From NCBI GenBank assembly GCA_963754875.1, contig CAVWHO010000015.1, positions 128,001-192,000 on the forward strand: DNA of 64,000 nucleotides, in the 5' to 3' direction. The first letter of the stretch is position 1. Each line of letters begins with the position of its first letter. The notes beneath the pieces were generated by a model. It was not told the origin of the DNA, did no database searches, and was given only the letters and a program-made list of their open reading frames with translations. Shown piece by piece: positions 53,001 to 62,520 of the stretch. This DNA comes from Nitrospirota bacterium (GTDB taxonomy: Bacteria > Nitrospirota > UBA9217). The translations under genes were made by a program, and so were the position numbers.

Positions 53001-53041
53001 TCTTCTCCAACCGAGTAGCGCCAGCCTTTATCGAACTCCAT

Positions 53042-53076
53042 AAAAAAAGGCCCCTATACTATGGGGGCCTTTTTTT
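53042..53076. terminator. Bidirectional Rho-independent terminator
   Basis: A7-GGCCCC-loop-GGGGCC-T7 between convergent genes. Confidence 0.88.
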
Positions 53077-53095
53077 GTAGGTACTTTTCGTCCTC

Positions 53096-54964
53096 TCAGA
53101 GGAACAGTCCTTCGACGATTTCCGAGTTCACCCGGTGGATCCAGTGGAGGATGTCGTACTTTGCCGGCTTCCGGCAGGTCTTCAAAACAGAGCCCGACAT
53201 AGTAGGCCCTGTCCTGTTTTCTGGCGTGATAGACCGTGGCGCGGACCGTGATGTTGCCCAGCGCGATCATGTTGAAGTTGACGTTCAATTTGGAGCCGAT
53301 GCCGATCGGGCCGCCGACTTCCAGAAGGCAGCCGGCCGGGCCGATGTTCTTTACCACGGCGGCGTTCGATTCATCGGAAAAACCTTCGAGCGAATAGGTC
53401 ACCGACGCGTCCGTGGCCTTTCTCATGAACCGCCTGGTCCCGCCTTTGACGGCCACGGCTTCGGCGATGCTGATCGGATGGTCCTTTCCCTTTACCATGA
53501 CCGGTGACAGTTCTTTCCAGGTCGCCTGATCGCCGATCTCATCGGCGATGATCTTGCTGACCAGCACCTGTCCCGGCTGCGCAACGCCGCAGAGCCGCGC
53601 CGCGATATTGATGTTGTCGCCGATCACCGTATAGTCCATGTGGTCTTCCGAACCCATGTTGCCCATGACGACCTCGCCGCTGTTCAGGCCGATGCCGATG
53701 GCTGATCTGTTTTTCCCCGGCCGCCGCCCTCGCCGCGTTCAAGGCCCTGCAGTAGCTCTGGATCTCCACCGCCGCGCGGACCGCGTTGATCTCCATGCCC
53801 TTCCCTTCGAAGATGGCCATGACCTCGTCGCCCACGAATTTATCGACGATCCCTCCCCAGTGATGGATGACCGTGGTCTGCAGGTTCAGATAGATGTTCA
53901 TGAGACTGACCACGTCCTCGGGGCTCATCTTCTCGGACAGGGACGTGAAACCGCGCGCGTCGGAGAACAGGGCGGTCACGTACTTCCGCTCGCCGCCCAG
54001 CTTCAGCTGCGTCACGTCCCGGTGCTCCTTGATGGAGAGGACCGTTGACTGGGACAGATATTTTTCCATGAGGAGCTTTTCCCGGAGGCTCAGGATCATC
54101 TGGTTGAAGACGTTGGTCAATTTCCCGATCTCGTCGTCGGAGGGGACCGCGACCAGCTTGCGCAGGTCCCCGCGGGCGACGACCTGGATGCCTTCCTCCA
54201 GCGAATCGAGGGGTTTCGTGATCATCGCGGGCGAGCGCGAAGGAGACCAGCAGGCCGACGACGACGAAACCCAGGGCGACCCAGAGATAGGTGATTTTCT
54301 GTTCGCGGATCGCTTCGTTCAGCGCTTTTTCGGAAAGCCCGATCCGCGCGACGCCGAGCTTGAGTTTTTTCGTCTGCAGCATGATGGGGATCGAGGCGTC
54401 CAGAACCGAATCGTTGTTCAACACCGTCTCCTGGAACAGGAGCGCATCGGCCTTCAAAGCCGCCTTATCAGCCGCTTCGGAAAAGACTGCCCCCTTCTTC
54501 GAAAAATCGCTGTGCGCAAAGACGCGTCCCTCGTCGTCGATGACCATGGCATACACGACGCCTTCTCGCTTCTGGATGTCCGTGATGGTGGAAAAGACCG
54601 GCAATTCCTGTTTGGTCAGCAGGCCTTCCTTGCCCACGTTCGCAAGCTGCTGGACCAGGACGGCAGCCCGGCTGTTCAGTTCATTACGAAGGATCGCATT
54701 CTGGCGGGCAAAGGTCACGACGCCGAGAGAAAGAACGGCGAGGCTCAGGACCATGATGAGCGTGCCTGCAATCTTATAGCGGACCTTGATCGAGGAAAAG
54801 AAACGGAACAGCCAGGAATGGCGGAGCGGTTGCTGGACAATCGGCTTTGCCGGTGCAGGCGCAGCTACTGCGCTCCTTTTGTCAGGAGGAGTTTTCTGCA
54901 CGTCCGTTGCCGGCCCTGCGGCACCTTCGTTTTCGGCAATATTATTTCCGCCGTCGTCGCTCAT
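53096..54964 (-). CDS. Membrane class III adenylate cyclase (2TM, periplasmic sensor, HAMP, cyclase, C-terminal PilZ); +1 frameshifts ~54226, ~53700, ~53165
   Basis: FSDARGFT, DKFVGD, DYTVIGDNINIAARL across three ORF fragments; RRFMR ... NIGPAG PilZ-like tail. Confidence 0.85.
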
Positions 54965-55606: not shown

Positions 55607-56455
55607 TCAGCCCTGCTCCCTGCCTGCGGCCTCCCGTGCAAGCATCGCTTTTTTCCGCGCAATGCCCCATCTATAGCCGCCCAGTGCGCCGCTCTTCTGC
55701 AGAACGCGGTGGCAGGGAATGAGGTATGCTACCGGGTTATGGGCCACGGCATTCGCGATTGCGCGCACGGCTTTCGGCTGTTTGATGGTCCTGGCGATGT
55801 CCGAGTAGGACACGATAGTGCCGCGCGGGACGGTGAGGAGCGCTTGCCAGACCTTGAGCTGGAAATTCGTGCCCACGAGGTGGATCGGAAGCGCGCCTTT
55901 CGGATACCTGGAGTTGAATATGCGGTCGACATAGGGCCGGGTGCGCGAAGGGTCCTCGGCAATATCGGCGAGACGCCATTGTTTCCTCAGGTCAGCGACG
56001 ATCTTTTTTCGATCTGCCGGTCCTGCAAAGGCGAGATGGCAGATCCCCCTCCCCGTTACTGCCACGAGACATTCGCCAAAGGGGCTCGGATGGACGCCGT
56101 AGAAGATCTTCACGTGCAAGCCGCGCTTTTTGAACTCGCCCGGCGTCATCGCTTCGCTGTTCACGAACAGGTCGTGTAGCCGGCCCGCGCTCGACAGGCC
56201 GCTTTTATCCGTGACATCAAGCAGGTTTGCAGACTCGTCCATGACCTGCTTTGCGTAGGAAACGGTCAAAAGCTGCAGGAACCGCTTCGGGCTGATCCCG
56301 GCCCAGCGCTTGAAAAGCCGCTCGAAATGGTACTCGCTCAGGTGGACCGCCTGGGCGATTTTCTTTAGATCAGGCTGCTCGCGGAAATGTTTCTCCAGGA
56401 AGAGAATGGCCTTTTCAATGCGCTCGTAATCTTTTGCCAGTGATTCTCGGTTCAT
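55607..56455 (-). CDS. ada: AraC-HTH + O6-methylguanine-DNA methyltransferase (Ada-like, no Zn domain)
   Basis: LS.YHF.RLFKRWAGISPK, GTNFQ.KVW, IPCHRV, GGYRWG. Confidence 0.93.
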   Translation of the reverse strand: MNRESLAKDYERIEKAILFLEKHFREQPDLKKIAQAVHLSEYHFERLFKRWAGISPKRFLQLLTVSYAKQVMDESANLLDVTDKSGLSSAGRLHDLFVNSEAMTPGEFKKRGLHVKIFYGVHPSPFGECLVAVTGRGICHLAFAGPADRKKIVADLRKQWRLADIAEDPSRTRPYVDRIFNSRYPKGALPIHLVGTNFQLKVWQALLTVPRGTIVSYSDIARTIKQPKAVRAIANAVAHNPVAYLIPCHRVLQKSGALGGYRWGIARKKAMLAREAAGREQG

Positions 56456-56579: not shown

Positions 56580-56763
56580 CGGGGAATTGCTGGTATCTCA
56601 GGAGTGATATCTTTTCAGCAAAAGAATTGAATATCGCAGAAGGCGAATGTCAAGAGTAAAGACCTGTATAACCATATAAAGGGCACCTCCAGAGCATACC
56701 AGAGTGGTTAAGCTCTGATATGCTCTTGGGAGAAGAGACCAATCTTATCCCAGGAGGTGCTTT

Positions 56764-57792
56764 ATGAGATTGTACACAGGAATTGATCTACATTCAAGCA
56801 ACAGTTATCTGGCGATCATCGATGAAACTGGTAAACGGGTGTTCAAAAAGAAGCTTCCCAATGATCCGGAACAAATTCTTTCCGCTCTCGCACCATACAA
56901 GGATACGATTATCGGCATCGTCATCGAGTCCACGTACAACTGGTATTGGTTGGTGGATGCACTCATGGCAGAAGGATACAAGGTGCATCTCGCAAACCCT
57001 ACGGAGATCAAGCAATATAAGGGGCTCAAGTATTCAGACGATCAGCATGATGCCTTCTGGCTGGCCGAGATGCTGCGGCTCGGGATCCTTCCCGAAGGCT
57101 ACATTTACCCGAAAGAAGATCGACCAGTCCGTGACTTGTTACGCAAACGAAGCCATCTCGTAAAGCTCAGGACCTCGCTCATCATCAGTTTGCAGAACAT
57201 CATTTGCCGTAACAACGGGTTCCGGCTCAAGACGAACGACGTCAAGGCATTGAAAACGGATCGCGTTGCGCCGTTTCTTGAGCAGAACGAGGACCTGGCC
57301 TTGGCCGGCAAGATCAGCAAGGAGTCCATAGATTTTCTGACGCTCAAGATCAAAACGGTTGAGAGCATCATAGAAGACAGAATGGAGCTGCGCGAACCAT
57401 ACAAAAATCTCCTCACGTTGCAGGGAGTGGGTAAAACGTTGGGACTTACCATCATGCTGGAGACCGGCCCGATCAGCCGCTTCTCGCAAGTCGGCAACTA
57501 TTGCTCCTACTGCCGGAAAGTTTCAACCAAATGGATCAGCAACGATAAGAAAAAGGGCAAAGGGAACAAGAAAAGCGGCAACAAGTACCTGGCATGGGCC
57601 TTTTCCGAAGCTGCCGAGATCGCCCGACGCTATTATCCGGAAGCCCGGGCATATTACCAGCGCAAGATGCAAAAGACCAACGCCATGATAGCCCATCAAG
57701 CCCTGGCCCACAAACTGGCGCGGGCAGCGTATTACATCATGCGAGATGGAGTTCCCTTTATGCCGGAGAAAATCTTTACACAAAGTTCATAG
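56764..57792 (+). CDS. IS110-family DEDD recombinase/transposase
   Basis: GIDLH, IEST, SDDQHDA (DEDD); GVG HhH, GNKYL.WA..EAA, A.AHKLAR. Confidence 0.95.
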   Translation: MRLYTGIDLHSSNSYLAIIDETGKRVFKKKLPNDPEQILSALAPYKDTIIGIVIESTYNWYWLVDALMAEGYKVHLANPTEIKQYKGLKYSDDQHDAFWLAEMLRLGILPEGYIYPKEDRPVRDLLRKRSHLVKLRTSLIISLQNIICRNNGFRLKTNDVKALKTDRVAPFLEQNEDLALAGKISKESIDFLTLKIKTVESIIEDRMELREPYKNLLTLQGVGKTLGLTIMLETGPISRFSQVGNYCSYCRKVSTKWISNDKKKGKGNKKSGNKYLAWAFSEAAEIARRYYPEARAYYQRKMQKTNAMIAHQALAHKLARAAYYIMRDGVPFMPEKIFTQSS

Positions 57793-58170
57793 GCTGGCTG
57801 GGACGGTGAACCTTGCTTAGGGTTGGCAAAAAACCACGAGACCTGATTGGTAATCCGTCCCACCCTTTTATAGCGTTATCAGCATCTTTACTGCCCATGC
57901 CGCGAGCCATCATGGGGCTGGTTAACAACCATAAGACTTGTACATACTCCTGGACACGGCATGGAACCGAAGATTTTCTGGTCCGCCATAAGGCGGAAAG
58001 GGTCATGGATAAAAAGCTTCACCAATGACCTTAATCCCGATGGGTGACTGGTGCAGTGAAGACTGACACCGAAACCGAATGAAACTGCGGCAATGGTAAT
58101 GATGAAGATAACGAAAAGGCTCGGCGAGAAACATTCGTTTCTCGCCACAAGATAGCTTTTTCCGCTTGAC
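57793..58170 (+). ncRNA. Candidate bridge/seek RNA of the IS1111-group element
   Basis: About 380-nt structured 3' non-coding end containing a target-like GAGACCTGA and a donor-like ATGGGTG. Confidence 0.55.
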
Positions 58171-58419
58171 GGTGCCCTTTAAATGGGTGACCTGAGATGT
58201 TCATCTGGTATTCTCCGCGTACTCCGTTTATGGCCGCGTTTTGGACACAGCAGGCTTACACCTCCGCGGGAAACGTCTCTTCTTCTTAATTCATCCTTCC
58301 TACGTCTTACTTCCTGCTTCTTAATTTAATAAGGATTCATTTGCCGAGCAGGGCCATGATGCGTATAATAGAAAGAAAATGGGTCGAATCCAGCTTCATC
58401 TTCCCCGGAAACGCCATCC

Positions 58420-61400
58420 ATGATAAAACTGAAACGAAAGTATTTCTGGTGCGCCTCTATTACGGGTTTTCTGACGATCCTGGTGATCGCCATGACCGTA
58501 GTCGTCCCGATCTACCTGAATTCCGCGGCTGTAAAAAGTAGGATCAAGACCGCGGTGGCGGAGAAGCTCGGCGGGAAAGTTTCCTATGGGAAGATCGATA
58601 TTTCTCTGTTCCCCCGGCCCCAGGCAACGATCGAAGATCTCAGCCTGGCCTATCCCCATACGTTCAGAGGCACGCTCCGGTCCCTCAGCATTGCCCCGCA
58701 GATCCTTCCCCTTCTGAGAGGCCGCGTCCAGTTCTCCAAGATACGGATCCAGGAGCCCGACTTCAGGATCATCATGCCTGTTGCGAAGCCGGACACGACA
58801 TCCGAGGCCCCAACCCTGGAGGAAGTGAAAGCGAACATCAGGTCTGTGCTCGGCTATCTGCAGATGATAGGCCCCAGACTTGTTGTCGAGATGGACAACG
58901 GGAAATTTCTCCTGAGGAGAAACCACAGGGATTTTCTGTCCCTGAAAAATGTGGCCGTTCATTTCAATGCCCCGCCCGGCGACATGCACGTCCTGGTCAA
59001 GGCCGGCACGGACCAGTGGGGAGATTTTACCCTGAGCGGAGCCTACTCCTTTACCGAAACCCAAACGGAGATCCGGGATGTGACCTTGTCCCTGGGACAC
59101 TCCAGCCTCACGAACTTTTCCGCGCTCCTCTTCTGGGACCGCAATCCGCGCATTGAAATTCGTTCCGGCAAGGCCGAGTTTGCGCTGAAGGAAATCTATA
59201 CCTGGCTCAAGTCATCAGACAGCCTGACCCCCTTTATGAAAGAGCTGTCGTCCTTAAACGGCACGCTCTCGATCACGTCCATGCAGGGACGGGGGTTGAT
59301 CTCCGAGCCCGAGAAATGGCGTCTGCGGCTGATTGGCGAAGCTCGTCATATCGAATTCTCGTCCCCGCGGCTTCCCGCTCCCGTTATGGTCAATTACTCG
59401 TTCACCGTCGAGGACAATCTGCTGGAAATAACCGAATTGTCGGCGCGCATGGGCACGTCTTCCCTGTCTCATGTGTCCGCGCTTCTTACCGGACGGGACA
59501 ATCCCGTGCTCGAGCTCCGGAGCGGCAACGCGGCCATCAATATCACCGAGATCTTCGGTTGGCGCACCTGGCATCCGGCATTGGAGCATCTTCTCGAAGG
59601 AGTGGACACCCTGGCCGGAAAGTTCACCCTGACCGCGCTTAGGATCAACGGGCACCTGTACCGGCCCGAGACATGGAGGATCATGGCCAGCGGCGTGCTG
59701 GATCGCATCGTCTTTCATGCGCCGATACTTCCTGGCCAGATCAGCCTGGTGCAAGGAACGTTCAGCTATGTTCCCGACAAACTGTCTTTCAGCCTGAAGC
59801 AAGCCTCGATCCTCGACTCGACCATAACCGGCACCGCCGTGGTGAGCAACATCACCACGACCGTGAGCGACGTGGACCTGACGCTGAACGGCAGTTCAGG
59901 CAGAAAGACCGTTGACTGGGCCTTTGAGAACCTCAAACTGCCCCCCGAGCTCATGGTCAAGACCCCCCTTGCTCTTTCCGATGCCCATCTGGTCTGGCAG
60001 CGGAAAAAAGGCGTCTCCTTTTCCGGGACCGCGTCCGTAGCAAAGGGACCGAAGTTCGACCTGGACCTCTCCCAGCAGGGCACGGATCTGGCGGTCCATA
60101 AACTCACGATCAGGGACCAGGAAACAAAGGCGTCGTTCACCCTGAACTGGCAGAAGCAGGCGGCGGACTTCTCCTTCTCCGGTCTTCTCGCGGAAACAAC
60201 CTTGAGCAGGATATTCGAGCAGGGAACCTTCGGGAGCGGGACCATGCAGGGCGACCTTCATTCCAAGGTCCGCACTGACGAGCCGCTCAAGTCGCGGATA
60301 CGGGGAAGCCTTACAGGCAGCGATCTGTTCATTCCCTGGGGAATGCCGATCCCGACCACGGTGAACAAGTTCGTTCTCCACGCCGAGGACGACGTGCTCA
60401 CCGTCGACTCCGCGGACGTGACCTGGGGCAAGAATCATCTCTTCCTGACCGGGGCCGCGACCACGTCGGACGAGGGACTTGCCTTCGAGCATGACGCTCA
60501 CTGCAGACGGCATTGATATCCAGACGATCCAGCAGGCCCTGAAGCAGTCAGACAAGAAAACCGCACCTGTCCCCCCGACCGAAGAGAAAGAGAAGGTGAG
60601 GTCGTTCCCCCTGCCGCCCTATCGGGGCTGACTTCACCGCCTACTCGACGTACGTCAAGTTCGGACGCTTTACCCTGGCGCCCGCGCACGCCGTCATGAC
60701 CGTGGAGCCCGGCAAGGTGGGCATGGAGTTCAACAATACGAAGACGTGCGGAGTTTCTTTGGCAGGCGCGGTCCTCATGTCCGGGGCAACCATGTCGTTC
60801 ACCTTTACGCCCTCGGCAAAGGCGGAGCCCCTGGAGCCGACCATCGACTGCCTGACCGGCAAGGAACTGCACATAACCGGCGACTATGACCTGACTGCGG
60901 ATATTCAGTCCCACGGAACAGGCACGGACATGCTTTCCGCCCTGGAAGGCCGGGTGGATTTCAAGGCGCGGAAGGGAAAGATCTATCAATACCCGACGCT
61001 CGCAGAAAGTACTGTCCGTTCTGAGCGTGCTCGAGATCTTCCGCGGGCGGATCCCGGACATCGGGGGAAACGGCTTCCCCTACAACTCCATGGCGCTCCG
61101 GGGAGACATTCACAAGGGCGTATTCACGATCGAAAAGGCCTACATCGGCGGGCAGTCGCTGGACATCATTGCGGAGGGAGAGGTCGATCTGGGGAAACAG
61201 AAGATCGACGTGGTCGTGCTCGTGGCGCCGTTCTCGACGATCAACTGGCTCATCAGGCACACGCCGCTCCTCGGCACGATCATGGGAGGCACGCTCATCT
61301 CGATCCCGACCCGCGTGTCCGGCGATCTGACCAATCCTGACGTGGTCATTCTCTCCCCCACGGCCGTGGGGGGGAGAATAGTGAATCTTCTGAAAAATAT

Positions 61401-61461
61401 CGTCACACTACCTGTTGAAATCATCTCGCCGATCTTGCCGAAGGAGGAGAAGAAGAAGTGA
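58420..61461 (+). CDS. AsmA-like (YhdP-type) envelope protein; frameshifts ~60489, ~60590-60650, ~61005
   Basis: N-terminal TM anchor, beta-rich body, AsmA_2-like C-terminus (GEVDL, V.GDL.NP.V). Confidence 0.8.
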
Positions 61462-61964: not shown

Positions 61965-62520
61965 GTGAATTACCCCGCAGCAGAGCTGCGGGGCATCCTA
62001 AATGCGCTAGAACCTAAAGCCAACTTGCTCATCATGCTGATACCGAATATACTTTCTTATAACTTCTGCCGTTACTTTGTCGCCAACCGAACGGACAAAG
62101 TAGCCGTCATTCCAGAGTTCTCCTCCCCAAAGTTTTTTCTTTATCTCGGGGAATTCTCGAAACATCATCTTTGCCGATATGCTTTTGATTATCTGTACTA
62201 CCCTCGCTGGAGCATACTTCGGTGGCACAACCAAAAACAAATGCACATGATCATCCATTGCTTCCATCGTATCTATTTCAAATTCATATCGCTCTGCGAT
62301 CTCACGAAATATCTCTTTCAGTCTCGTCGTCATTCGATCGCTGAACAGCTTCCTTCGATATTTTGGTATCCATACAAAATGGTACTTCAGATCATAGACG
62401 CTATGTTTGCTTCTTCTCAATGGGCTCATGGCCCGTATTGTAACAGATTCTCATCCTGACTTCGTCAGGATATCCTTTTCATCCCAGCAGCAGAGCTGCT
62501 GGGTATTTCAGGATGTTTTT
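61965..62520 (-). mobile_element. Minimal IS200-type element (tnpA only, 556 bp)
   Basis: Near-identical sub-terminal hairpins (CCCGCAGCAGAGCTGCGGG, CCCAGCAGCAGAGCTGCTGGG), right end TCAC, target TTAT, no TSD. Confidence 0.9.
62007..62429 (-). CDS. tnpA: IS200/IS605 Y1 HUH transposase
   Basis: YHFVWIPKYRR, DHVHL, LW..GYFV.SVG, YI..Q. Confidence 0.96.
   Translation of the reverse strand: MSPLRRSKHSVYDLKYHFVWIPKYRRKLFSDRMTTRLKEIFREIAERYEFEIDTMEAMDDHVHLFLVVPPKYAPARVVQIIKSISAKMMFREFPEIKKKLWGGELWNDGYFVRSVGDKVTAEVIRKYIRYQHDEQVGFRF

Follow-up and report, generated by a model that had tools for sequence, protein, structure and literature searches.

The Nitrospirota DNA analysed here (a stretch of 64,000 nucleotides, hereafter the window) carries an intact insertion sequence (IS) of the IS1111 group of the IS110 family, the 3′ non-coding end of which is predicted to specify a guide RNA with three loop modules. 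In the reading that we favor, and consider moderately probable, a main target loop (loop 1) aims insertion, a donor loop reads the right end of the element, and a second target-type module (loop 2) aids exit from the occupied site. A narrower statement, that this is an RNA-guided IS1111 element with loop-1 and donor guides placed as mapped below, is very probable in view of the way these guides covary with flanking DNA among relatives. The 3′ bridge RNA or seekRNA proposed in an earlier note on this DNA, made from the sequence alone, gains its support from the same covariation.

The relatives comprise 70 genome loci, 30 loci from a search of 401 genomes of the phylum (partly overlapping the former), and the best 80 of 595 metagenome stretches, giving 183 records with the three copies in the element's own genome included; 123 of these have a right end. 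Exclusion of records that lack either flank, contain an unparsed loop, or have TA at the right junction leaves 81 records, representing 56 units with distinct guides, or 61 units when the TA right-junction group is added back. Guide-flank pairing was scored out of 6 and compared with 20,000 permutations of the flanks, and the comparison was repeated with each of 24 target classes represented by a single unit; on the right side the score is the best of three registers, and the permutations were treated likewise. The target has switched in several separate clades of a FastTree tree, on which non-overlapping (independent) pairs served for comparing each guide's fit to its own flank and to the swapped flank. 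Within the window by itself, guide matches are barely above chance: in 2,000 shuffles of the 3′ end by dinucleotides, an 8-nt target match is attained by 160, a 7-nt donor match by 491, and a 9-nt right-junction match by 43, so that support for the guides comes from covariation in relatives. Such covariation, which the earlier note had suggested looking for between loop segments and the flanks of homologues, is found over the 56 units. For all four target guides (both target loops, both sides), the observed score is reached by none of the 20,000 permutations, and the same is true of the 24 one-per-class units.

The segments of loop 1 are as follows.

57799 to 57862, + strand: loop 1, the main target-binding hairpin (covariation, structure model)
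57816 to 57823: right-target guide CTTAGGGT
57824 to 57836: inner hairpin
57838 to 57843: left-target guide GAGACC
57844 to 57845: core TG
57846 to 57847: handshake AT

The segment GAGACCTG, previously proposed as a guide for the left target half plus core, scores 4.88 of 6 against 3.01 with permuted flanks (0 of 20,000 reaching it). The right-target guide CTTAGGGT, absent from the earlier note, precedes the left-target guide and core (57838 to 57845) and scores 5.26 against 3.91; both covary. Among independent pairs the own flank is favored 17 to 0 of 18 on the left and 6 to 0 of 7 on the right. Thus, judging from the covariation, the 5′ guide of loop 1 would read the right target half and the 3′ guide the left half together with TG. 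The match to the top strand of the target lies 5′ of the match to the bottom strand, which is the IS1111 order, and the two handshake bases after the core equal bases 1 and 2 of the left end in 53 of the 61 units.

The donor loop lies closer to the right end.

57967 to 58051, + strand: donor-binding multiloop (covariation, structure model)
57969 to 57978: weak candidate 5′ guide GAAGATTTTC
57982 to 57997: hairpin
58000 to 58004 with 58027 to 58031: stem GGGTC/GACCT
58039 to 58044: donor guide GATGGG
58045 to 58046: core TG
58047 to 58048: handshake AC

The identification of ATGGGTG as a donor guide is upheld, the last letter of the guide (G or A) and that of the donor being identical in 95 of 97 distinct elements. 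Moreover, a handshake dinucleotide at 58047 to 58048 had been overlooked; in 85 of 93 distinct elements it is the same as the two bases that open the right flank, and this is so for 29 of the 37 whose flank is not AC. The donor loop would therefore, as covariation has it, read the right end plus TG, with its next two bases matching those at the start of the right target half, a handshake pattern that at sequence level is that of IS621 read on the opposite strand. Within the same multiloop, the earlier note had taken GGGTCA at 58000 for a guide complementary to TGACCC, which with ATGGGTG would form a loop reading the right junction. It is indeed complementary to the consensus core-plus-right target, but the segment pairs with GACCT at 58027 to 58031 in a stem with compensatory changes at three of five pairs, and it is independent of the target, GGGTC being kept in 25 of 47 elements with a right flank that begins otherwise than ACC and in 30 of 51 with one that begins ACC; 112 of the 2,000 shuffles contain GGGTCA. 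We regard a guide function here as scarcely credible, and have likewise set aside GTTATCA (57875 to 57881) as a donor guide, this segment being part of a long-range helix. All other motifs in the earlier note lie where it placed them: GGGACGG at 57800, CCGTCCC at 57855, and GAGACCTGA at 57838, as well as ATGGGTG at 58040 and 58183, TTGACG at 58166, TATAAC at 56667, GCACCTCC at 56683, and GGAGGTGC at 56753, and GGGTCA is at 58000 as stated.

The fold of the 3′ end separates loop 1 from the remaining modules by means of this helix.

57874 to 58113, + strand: predicted long-range helix (57874 to 57891 with 58096 to 58113) enclosing loop 2 and the donor loop as one domain

A 54-pair model, built from the window and RNAalifold, was scored on 27 diverse 3′ ends. 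In it 93.9% of cells are paired, compared with 30 to 44% when the alignment is slid, and 30 pairs change on both sides, compared with 10 to 16, although the model derives partly from these same sequences and hence leans toward a good fit. Changes on both sides occur in 8 of 12 pairs of the long-range helix. Loop 1 is a free hairpin, whereas loop 2 and the donor multiloop reside within the one long helix. A skeleton of CC, guide, TGG, insert, CC, guide, TG, two bases, and TGG is common to all three modules; its short CC/GG and TGG/CCA pairs are nearly invariant and thus uninformative on pairing.

Loop 2, another feature missing from the earlier note, displays this skeleton in full.

57896 to 57963, + strand: loop 2, a second target-loop module with the loop 1 skeleton
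57918: end of the 5′ guide, which terminates in GGGGC
57919 to 57931: hairpin
57933 to 57938: 3′ guide AAGACT
57939 to 57940: TG
57941 to 57942: TA

A profile built from both loops detects two target-type modules in 110 of the 123 3′ ends, in addition to the donor loop, an architecture unlike the two-loop type of IS621. The left guide of loop 2 scores 4.05 against 3.15 with permuted flanks and the right guide 4.31 against 3.65, and among independent pairs the left guide favors its own flank 13 to 0 of 18. Its pairing is concentrated beside the core, with frequencies of 0.90 and 0.93 at positions −2 and −1 (0.54 and 0.58 when permuted) and a weak signal at −3. Where the flank has C at −2 (n = 30), loop 2 has C in 17 units, T in 12, and G in 1, as expected if pairing that includes wobble is selected. 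From these patterns, loop 2 probably pairs with target DNA under selection.

Several observations weigh against the three-loop reading. A profile made from one loop finds the other in only 39 to 51 of 101 distinct 3′ ends (cutoff 5 bits, at which 1 of 505 shuffles matches), and in the present element the loop-1 profile misses loop 2, though the loop-2 profile does find loop 1. The right guide of loop 2 favors its own flank 5 to 1 of 7 independent pairs, which is not significant (p = 0.11), and across relatives loop 2 shows no pairing signal at −4 to −6. Loop 2 has stayed unchanged in the three retargeted pairs that are closest, so that this loop lags behind and may be partly dispensable. Of 61 units, 7 have a loop-2 handshake equal to the left end, and 0 have one equal to the right flank, which leaves loop 2 without a positive excision handshake. 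In the lineage of this element, against the general pattern, an extra T makes the AT of loop 1 mismatch the left end, TA, which the TA of loop 2 matches. The candidate 5′ donor guide (57969 to 57978) shows no covariation among relatives, and it pairs at 6 of 7 positions with the usual left end but less well with that of this lineage. Finally, IS621 excises with two loops only (PMC13626964).

The lag in retargeting is also what would be seen if loop 2 were a structural or vestigial duplicate that reads no DNA and owes its likeness to the target to occasional copying from loop 1 and to shared ancestry. In keeping with this, the left flank is better fit by loop 1 in 38 of the 56 units and by loop 2 in 6; in 17 cases of disagreement between loop 1 and the flank at −5 and −4, loop 2 follows loop 1 nine times and the flank four times; and in the genome copy on C20 the 3′ guide of loop 2 is identical to that of loop 1. 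Yet only 7 of 56 units have loops that are identical over 6 nt, and at −3 to −1 loop 2 follows the flank six times, loop 1 four times, and neither three times. The wobble-compatible T that stands for C where the flank has C, present in 12 of 30 units, occurs in 2 of 30 in loop 1, and the TGG/CCA skeleton of loop 2 is unchanged in 27 of 27 aligned sequences and readable by eye at about 45 to 50% protein identity. Copying from loop 1 to loop 2 is neither shown nor excluded, and the vestigial explanation as a whole appears unlikely. Much less probable still is a second, independent target specificity: the two loops do differ in 49 of 56 units, and loop 2 gives the better left-flank fit in the six mentioned, but it tracks the flank that loop 1 tracks, and all three genome copies lie in the loop-1 motif.

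The core and junctions of the element are as follows.

56665 to 56666, + strand: left TG core, with T from the target and G presumably the first base of the element, given discordant junctions in relatives
58188 to 58189, + strand: right TG core, with T presumably the last base of the element and G from the target
58166 to 58171, + strand: −35 hexamer TTGACG of a predicted circle-junction promoter with an 18-nt spacer
56667 to 56672, + strand: −10 hexamer TATAAC of the same predicted promoter

The core had been read as TG, with GT as the alternative, and TG it is in 110 of 115 distinct left junctions (the others being 3 CG and 2 AG), the second base being G in all 115. When both ends are anchored by their inverted repeats (n = 44), there are 36 TG/TG, 2 CG/CG, 1 AG/AG, 3 TG/TA, and 1 CG/TA combinations and 1 mis-anchored case. 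In the 4 of 44 discordant cores, the first base on the left and the second base on the right match the target. The net crossover is thereby located between T and G, which bounds the element at 56666 to 58188 and implies no true target duplication. The previously given limits of 56665 to 58189 thus stand as to end motifs and TG, and are narrowed by removal of the duplicated bases. A GT core is rejected on the left-junction counts and because most relatives are without the extra T; no empty site of the GT type was found in the genome, a count that is weak by itself since fewer than one is expected.

Where most relatives have GATAAT, the extra T gives this element TATAAC, longer by one T. The junction promoter suggested earlier is confirmed as geometry, TTGAC lying 17 to 18 nt before the −10 element over the predicted joint in 39 of 44 cases; a linear promoter scan is blind to promoters of this kind. 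By analogy with IS1111 biology, in which circles, a junction promoter, and dependence on RNA are documented in the literature, rare excision would produce a circle whose joint forms the TTGACG-18-TATAAC promoter, and the junction transcript would carry both the recombinase mRNA and the guide RNA. The circle joint was not found in four metatranscriptome contig sets, although contigs cannot show RNA ends or level; these sets do contain parts of the gene and 3′ end from relatives 85 to 99% alike, some extending into flanks. Such contigs neither show nor exclude the guide RNA. None of the public sequencing runs contained half of the element's words.

Loop 1 may be freed as a short fragment resembling a seekRNA. 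Loop 2 and the donor loop, tied together by the helix, would engage the junctions of the integrated element in an unlocked state, while loop 1 would select the new site. In IS621, handshake bases become paired once strands have been exchanged, and this pushes insertion forward. Handshake pairing ahead of exchange inhibits recombination (PMC11208158; PMC13626964). A role for loop 2 in exit is suggested by its needing only core-adjacent bases and not being locked by a handshake, and in CazIS110-1 an RNA consisting of the target-binding loop (TBL) only cooperates with full bridge RNA (10.1101/2025.10.25.684509). We put forward excision or copy-out as the role of loop 2 tentatively, at a little below an even chance. 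If loop 2 does serve exit, it could become possible to tune excision and insertion apart in bridge recombinases, whose weak direction is excision.

An alternative arrangement would use loops 1 and 2 as two target loops for direct transfer, one on the old flanks and the other on the new site, with no circle. Both loops track the same target, and published work is compatible with such transfer: TBL-only RNA supports transfer from junction to new target in CazIS110-1 and IS621 (10.1101/2025.10.25.684509), and Siddiquee et al. (PMC11187229) report that intact flanks are required and that a target-only seekRNA is enough. However, the circle-junction promoter is kept in 39 of 44 cases, implying that circles matter, and the partner of loop 2 in its domain is the donor loop, not loop 1. 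We consider direct transfer improbable, and return to the reading in which loop 2 aids exit. Conceivably, an entire clade within the IS1111 group divides transposition between a free, exact target loop with an insertion handshake, which picks new sites, and a helix-bound, loose target loop joined to a donor loop, which manages departure from old ones; we rate this generalization as less likely than not. If it were true, the loop that is loaded would set the direction of the reaction, and insertion and excision might be separately programmable.

Comparisons with known systems place the element as follows. SeekRNAs have been demonstrated for the IS1111 elements ISEc11, ISKpn4, ISPst6, and ISPa11 (Siddiquee et al., 2024; PMC11187229), and a right-end bridge RNA with a donor multiloop has been predicted in IS1111 members (Durrant et al., 2024; PMC11208160). 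Placing the crossover between T and G leaves the inverted repeats of the present element with extensions, beyond a 15-bp repeat, of 7 bp on the left and 3 bp on the right, as reported for the sub-terminal inverted repeats of IS1111 elements, and its recombinase of 342 amino acids falls inside the range of 330 to 350 given for the group (PMC11187229). It shares these features and a 3′ non-coding region with the four seekRNA elements, along with match order, the predicted junction promoter, no true target duplication, and natural retargeting among relatives. The portions of the seekRNA paper considered here describe target matches only, a seekRNA of 70 to 100 nt, and a long form whose role is left open; here, by contrast, covariation within a structured region of about 320 nt points to a second target loop and to a donor guide with a handshake. 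Like IS621 and ISCro4 (PMC11208160; PMC11208158; PMC13626964), the element has a DEDD-plus-serine recombinase, predicted target and donor loops, a 2-nt core, and handshakes. It differs from IS621, in which the RNA lies in the left end and has two loops and a CT core, by its predicted right-end RNA, opposite reading orientation, three modules, and TG core with a constant second base.

In CazIS110-1, too, a free target loop works beside full bridge RNA (10.1101/2025.10.25.684509), but that loop is a truncated part of the two-loop RNA itself, whereas this element is predicted to encode its own extra target loop. The nearest named element among the matches listed is the ISGsu4 family of IS110 transposases, at 48% identity (plasmid matches H7 and H8), which appears in Supplementary Table 1 of Durrant et al. 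(PMC11208160). By eye, ISGsu4-type matches share the end motifs and the three-module 3′ end, while the target differs; no published description of the ISGsu4 RNA was found. Literature searches yielded no printed account of a second target loop, and none occurs in passages of PMC11208160, PMC13604230, PMC12288879, PMC13626964, and 10.1101/2025.05.14.653916 or, in part, the text supplements of PMC11208160; figures, bioRxiv supplements, and the 2026 Science papers of Perry et al. and Pelea et al., outside this scope, may be relevant. RNA guidance of IS110 and IS1111 elements is already published, and the element is a new example of it rather than a new mechanism; its interest lies in the unlisted second loop. 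SeekRNA and bridge-RNA accounts disagree as to donor reading by IS1111 RNAs and the function of the long RNA, and this clade, with its covarying donor guide, handshake, and third loop, bears on that dispute. Its many natural retargeting events also supply ready-made pairs of guide and target. As an observation on retargeting, near-identical copies in one genome (L007 to L014) have loop-1 and loop-2 guide letters that vary with their own flanks (GAAAAG versus GAGAAA), a snapshot of the process.

The remaining parts of the element are those expected of the IS1111 group.

56764 to 57792, + strand: IS110-family DEDD recombinase, 342 amino acids (open reading frame, family profiles, catalytic alignment)
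56672 to 56687, + strand: left sub-terminal inverted repeat (16 nt, 94%)
58171 to 58186, + strand: right sub-terminal inverted repeat (16 nt, 94%)
56680 to 56763, + strand: predicted 5′ leader fold, in which GCACCTCC (56683 to 56690) pairs with the ribosome-binding site GGAGGTGC (56753 to 56760)

Its assignment to the IS1111 group, made earlier from the sequence, agrees with the family profile, the sub-terminal inverted repeats (complementary at 15 of 16 positions), and the 3′ non-coding region, which extends for 378 nt from the stop codon to the right repeat and has a fold z-score of −4.09. The protein scores 175.4 bits with the NCBIfam IS110 profile NF033542 (cutoff 140), and both PF01548 (the N-terminal RuvC-like DEDD domain) and PF02371 (the C-terminal domain) exceed their cutoffs. 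Residues D8, E55, D93, D96, and S259 align with catalytic residues of the IS621 and ISCro4 chains (residue roles in the IS621 active site are given in PMC11208158). The four acidic residues are unchanged in 15 of 15 aligned proteins and the serine is kept in at least 90%, within a motif that here is SN rather than the usual SG.

Three full copies occur in the genome, namely that of the window on C15, an identical one on C5, and one of 98.9% identity on C20, and there are also remnants on C7 (3′) and C18 (5′). The closest relatives, at 92 to 96% protein identity, are in Nitrospirota records; a search of viral contigs found no relatives, and an Rfam search gave only two matches, both sub-threshold. 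The 3′ remnant (L182, G000:C7:59909-60258) comes from a related element about 90% alike to L016 and L101; it begins at the long-range helix and consists of loop 2, the donor loop, and the right end on a ACCCTAAG flank, without loop 1 or transposase. The 5′ remnant (G000:C18:61212-61395) holds the first 34 codons of a relative, with the junction AAAAGACC, TG, CATAACC. Tandem right-end duplications of 14 to 15 nt occur in 9 of 123 elements (L018, L029, L034, L084, L112, L128, L131, L144, and L157, the last with six extra copies); they begin at GGTG within the inverted repeat and may reflect slippage or self-targeting.

The leader hairpin covering the ribosome-binding site, also foreseen in the earlier note, is well supported: its z-score is −7.25, a value reached by 0 of 200 shuffles, complementarity of at least 7 nt is present in 99 of 115 left ends as against 48 of 2,300 shuffles, and L163 contains a compensatory pair. 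On this model, the leader fold likely damps translation of read-through transcripts.

The DNA at which the element is aimed belongs to a repeat whose identity the earlier note did not give.

56649 to 56664, + strand: left target half, a TIRYT-type terminal-inverted-repeat sequence ending AAAGACC (host DNA)
58190 to 58200, + strand: right target half, starting ACCTGAG, a degenerate version of the consensus ACCCTA

All three genome copies have AAAGACC followed by TG on the left and TG followed by AC on the right, and thus lie in one motif in one orientation (3 of 3). Empty copies are in excess, with 12 occurrences of AAAGACCTGAC against 3.9 expected and 3 of the longer AAAGACCTGACCC against 0.22. 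The 16-nt left flank of the window plus TG is uninterrupted at G000:C14:180260, and another empty copy matches the C5 site. Several uninterrupted copies sit at the ends of genes for 283-amino-acid proteins with Y1_Tnp and HTH domains (in L181, PF01797 is above cutoff and HTH_23 weak and below it), and one pair forms 21-nt terminal inverted repeats (TIRs) starting AGGGTCAGG, with three G rather than the four of the GGGGWSAS motif that characterizes TIRs of TIRYT/TnpA-Y1 subclass 2.1 (PMC3733652; 10.1101/279083). The target, as sequence comparison defines it, is the GGGTCAGGTC repeat that ends TIRYT tyrosine-transposase elements, wherever that repeat lies. The C5 copy is inserted in the TIR of a TIRYT-type element, while the window's own site is a solitary repeat, and a TIRYT-like open reading frame lies within 500 nt of the insertion at only 5 of 79 distinct sites, which restricts the target claim to the repeat rather than the gene. 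IS4321 and IS5075, also of the IS1111 group, reportedly have the Tn21 family's terminal inverted repeats as their target. The present element is similarly aimed at the ends of another mobile element, here a GGGGWSAS-type TIR, with most insertions in solitary repeats.

Five TIRYT-type genes with AGGGTCAGGTC inverted ends were noted, at G000:C20:172935-173777, 165940-166788, and 374174-375022, C6:17-865, and C5:131859-132164, being 72 to 94% alike to the C20:374174 copy; several lie, by eye, near toxin-antitoxin-like or methylase-like reading frames. In the left flanks of L007, L008, L013, and L030, TGATAATGTCC lies some 35 nt upstream from the true left end; it resembles the target plus a few left-end bases and is a possible footprint of a previous insertion. 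Elsewhere in the window, a gene combining Ada-like AraC and O6-methylguanine methyltransferase features (55607 to 56455, − strand) diverges from the insertion site, and a gene at 62007 to 62429 (− strand) encodes an IS200/IS605 TnpA of 140 amino acids, above cutoff. An AsmA-like gene (58420 to 61461, + strand) and a cyclase-like gene (53028 to 54964, − strand), the latter recognized by eye, each appear split over several frames, possibly by assembly frameshifts.

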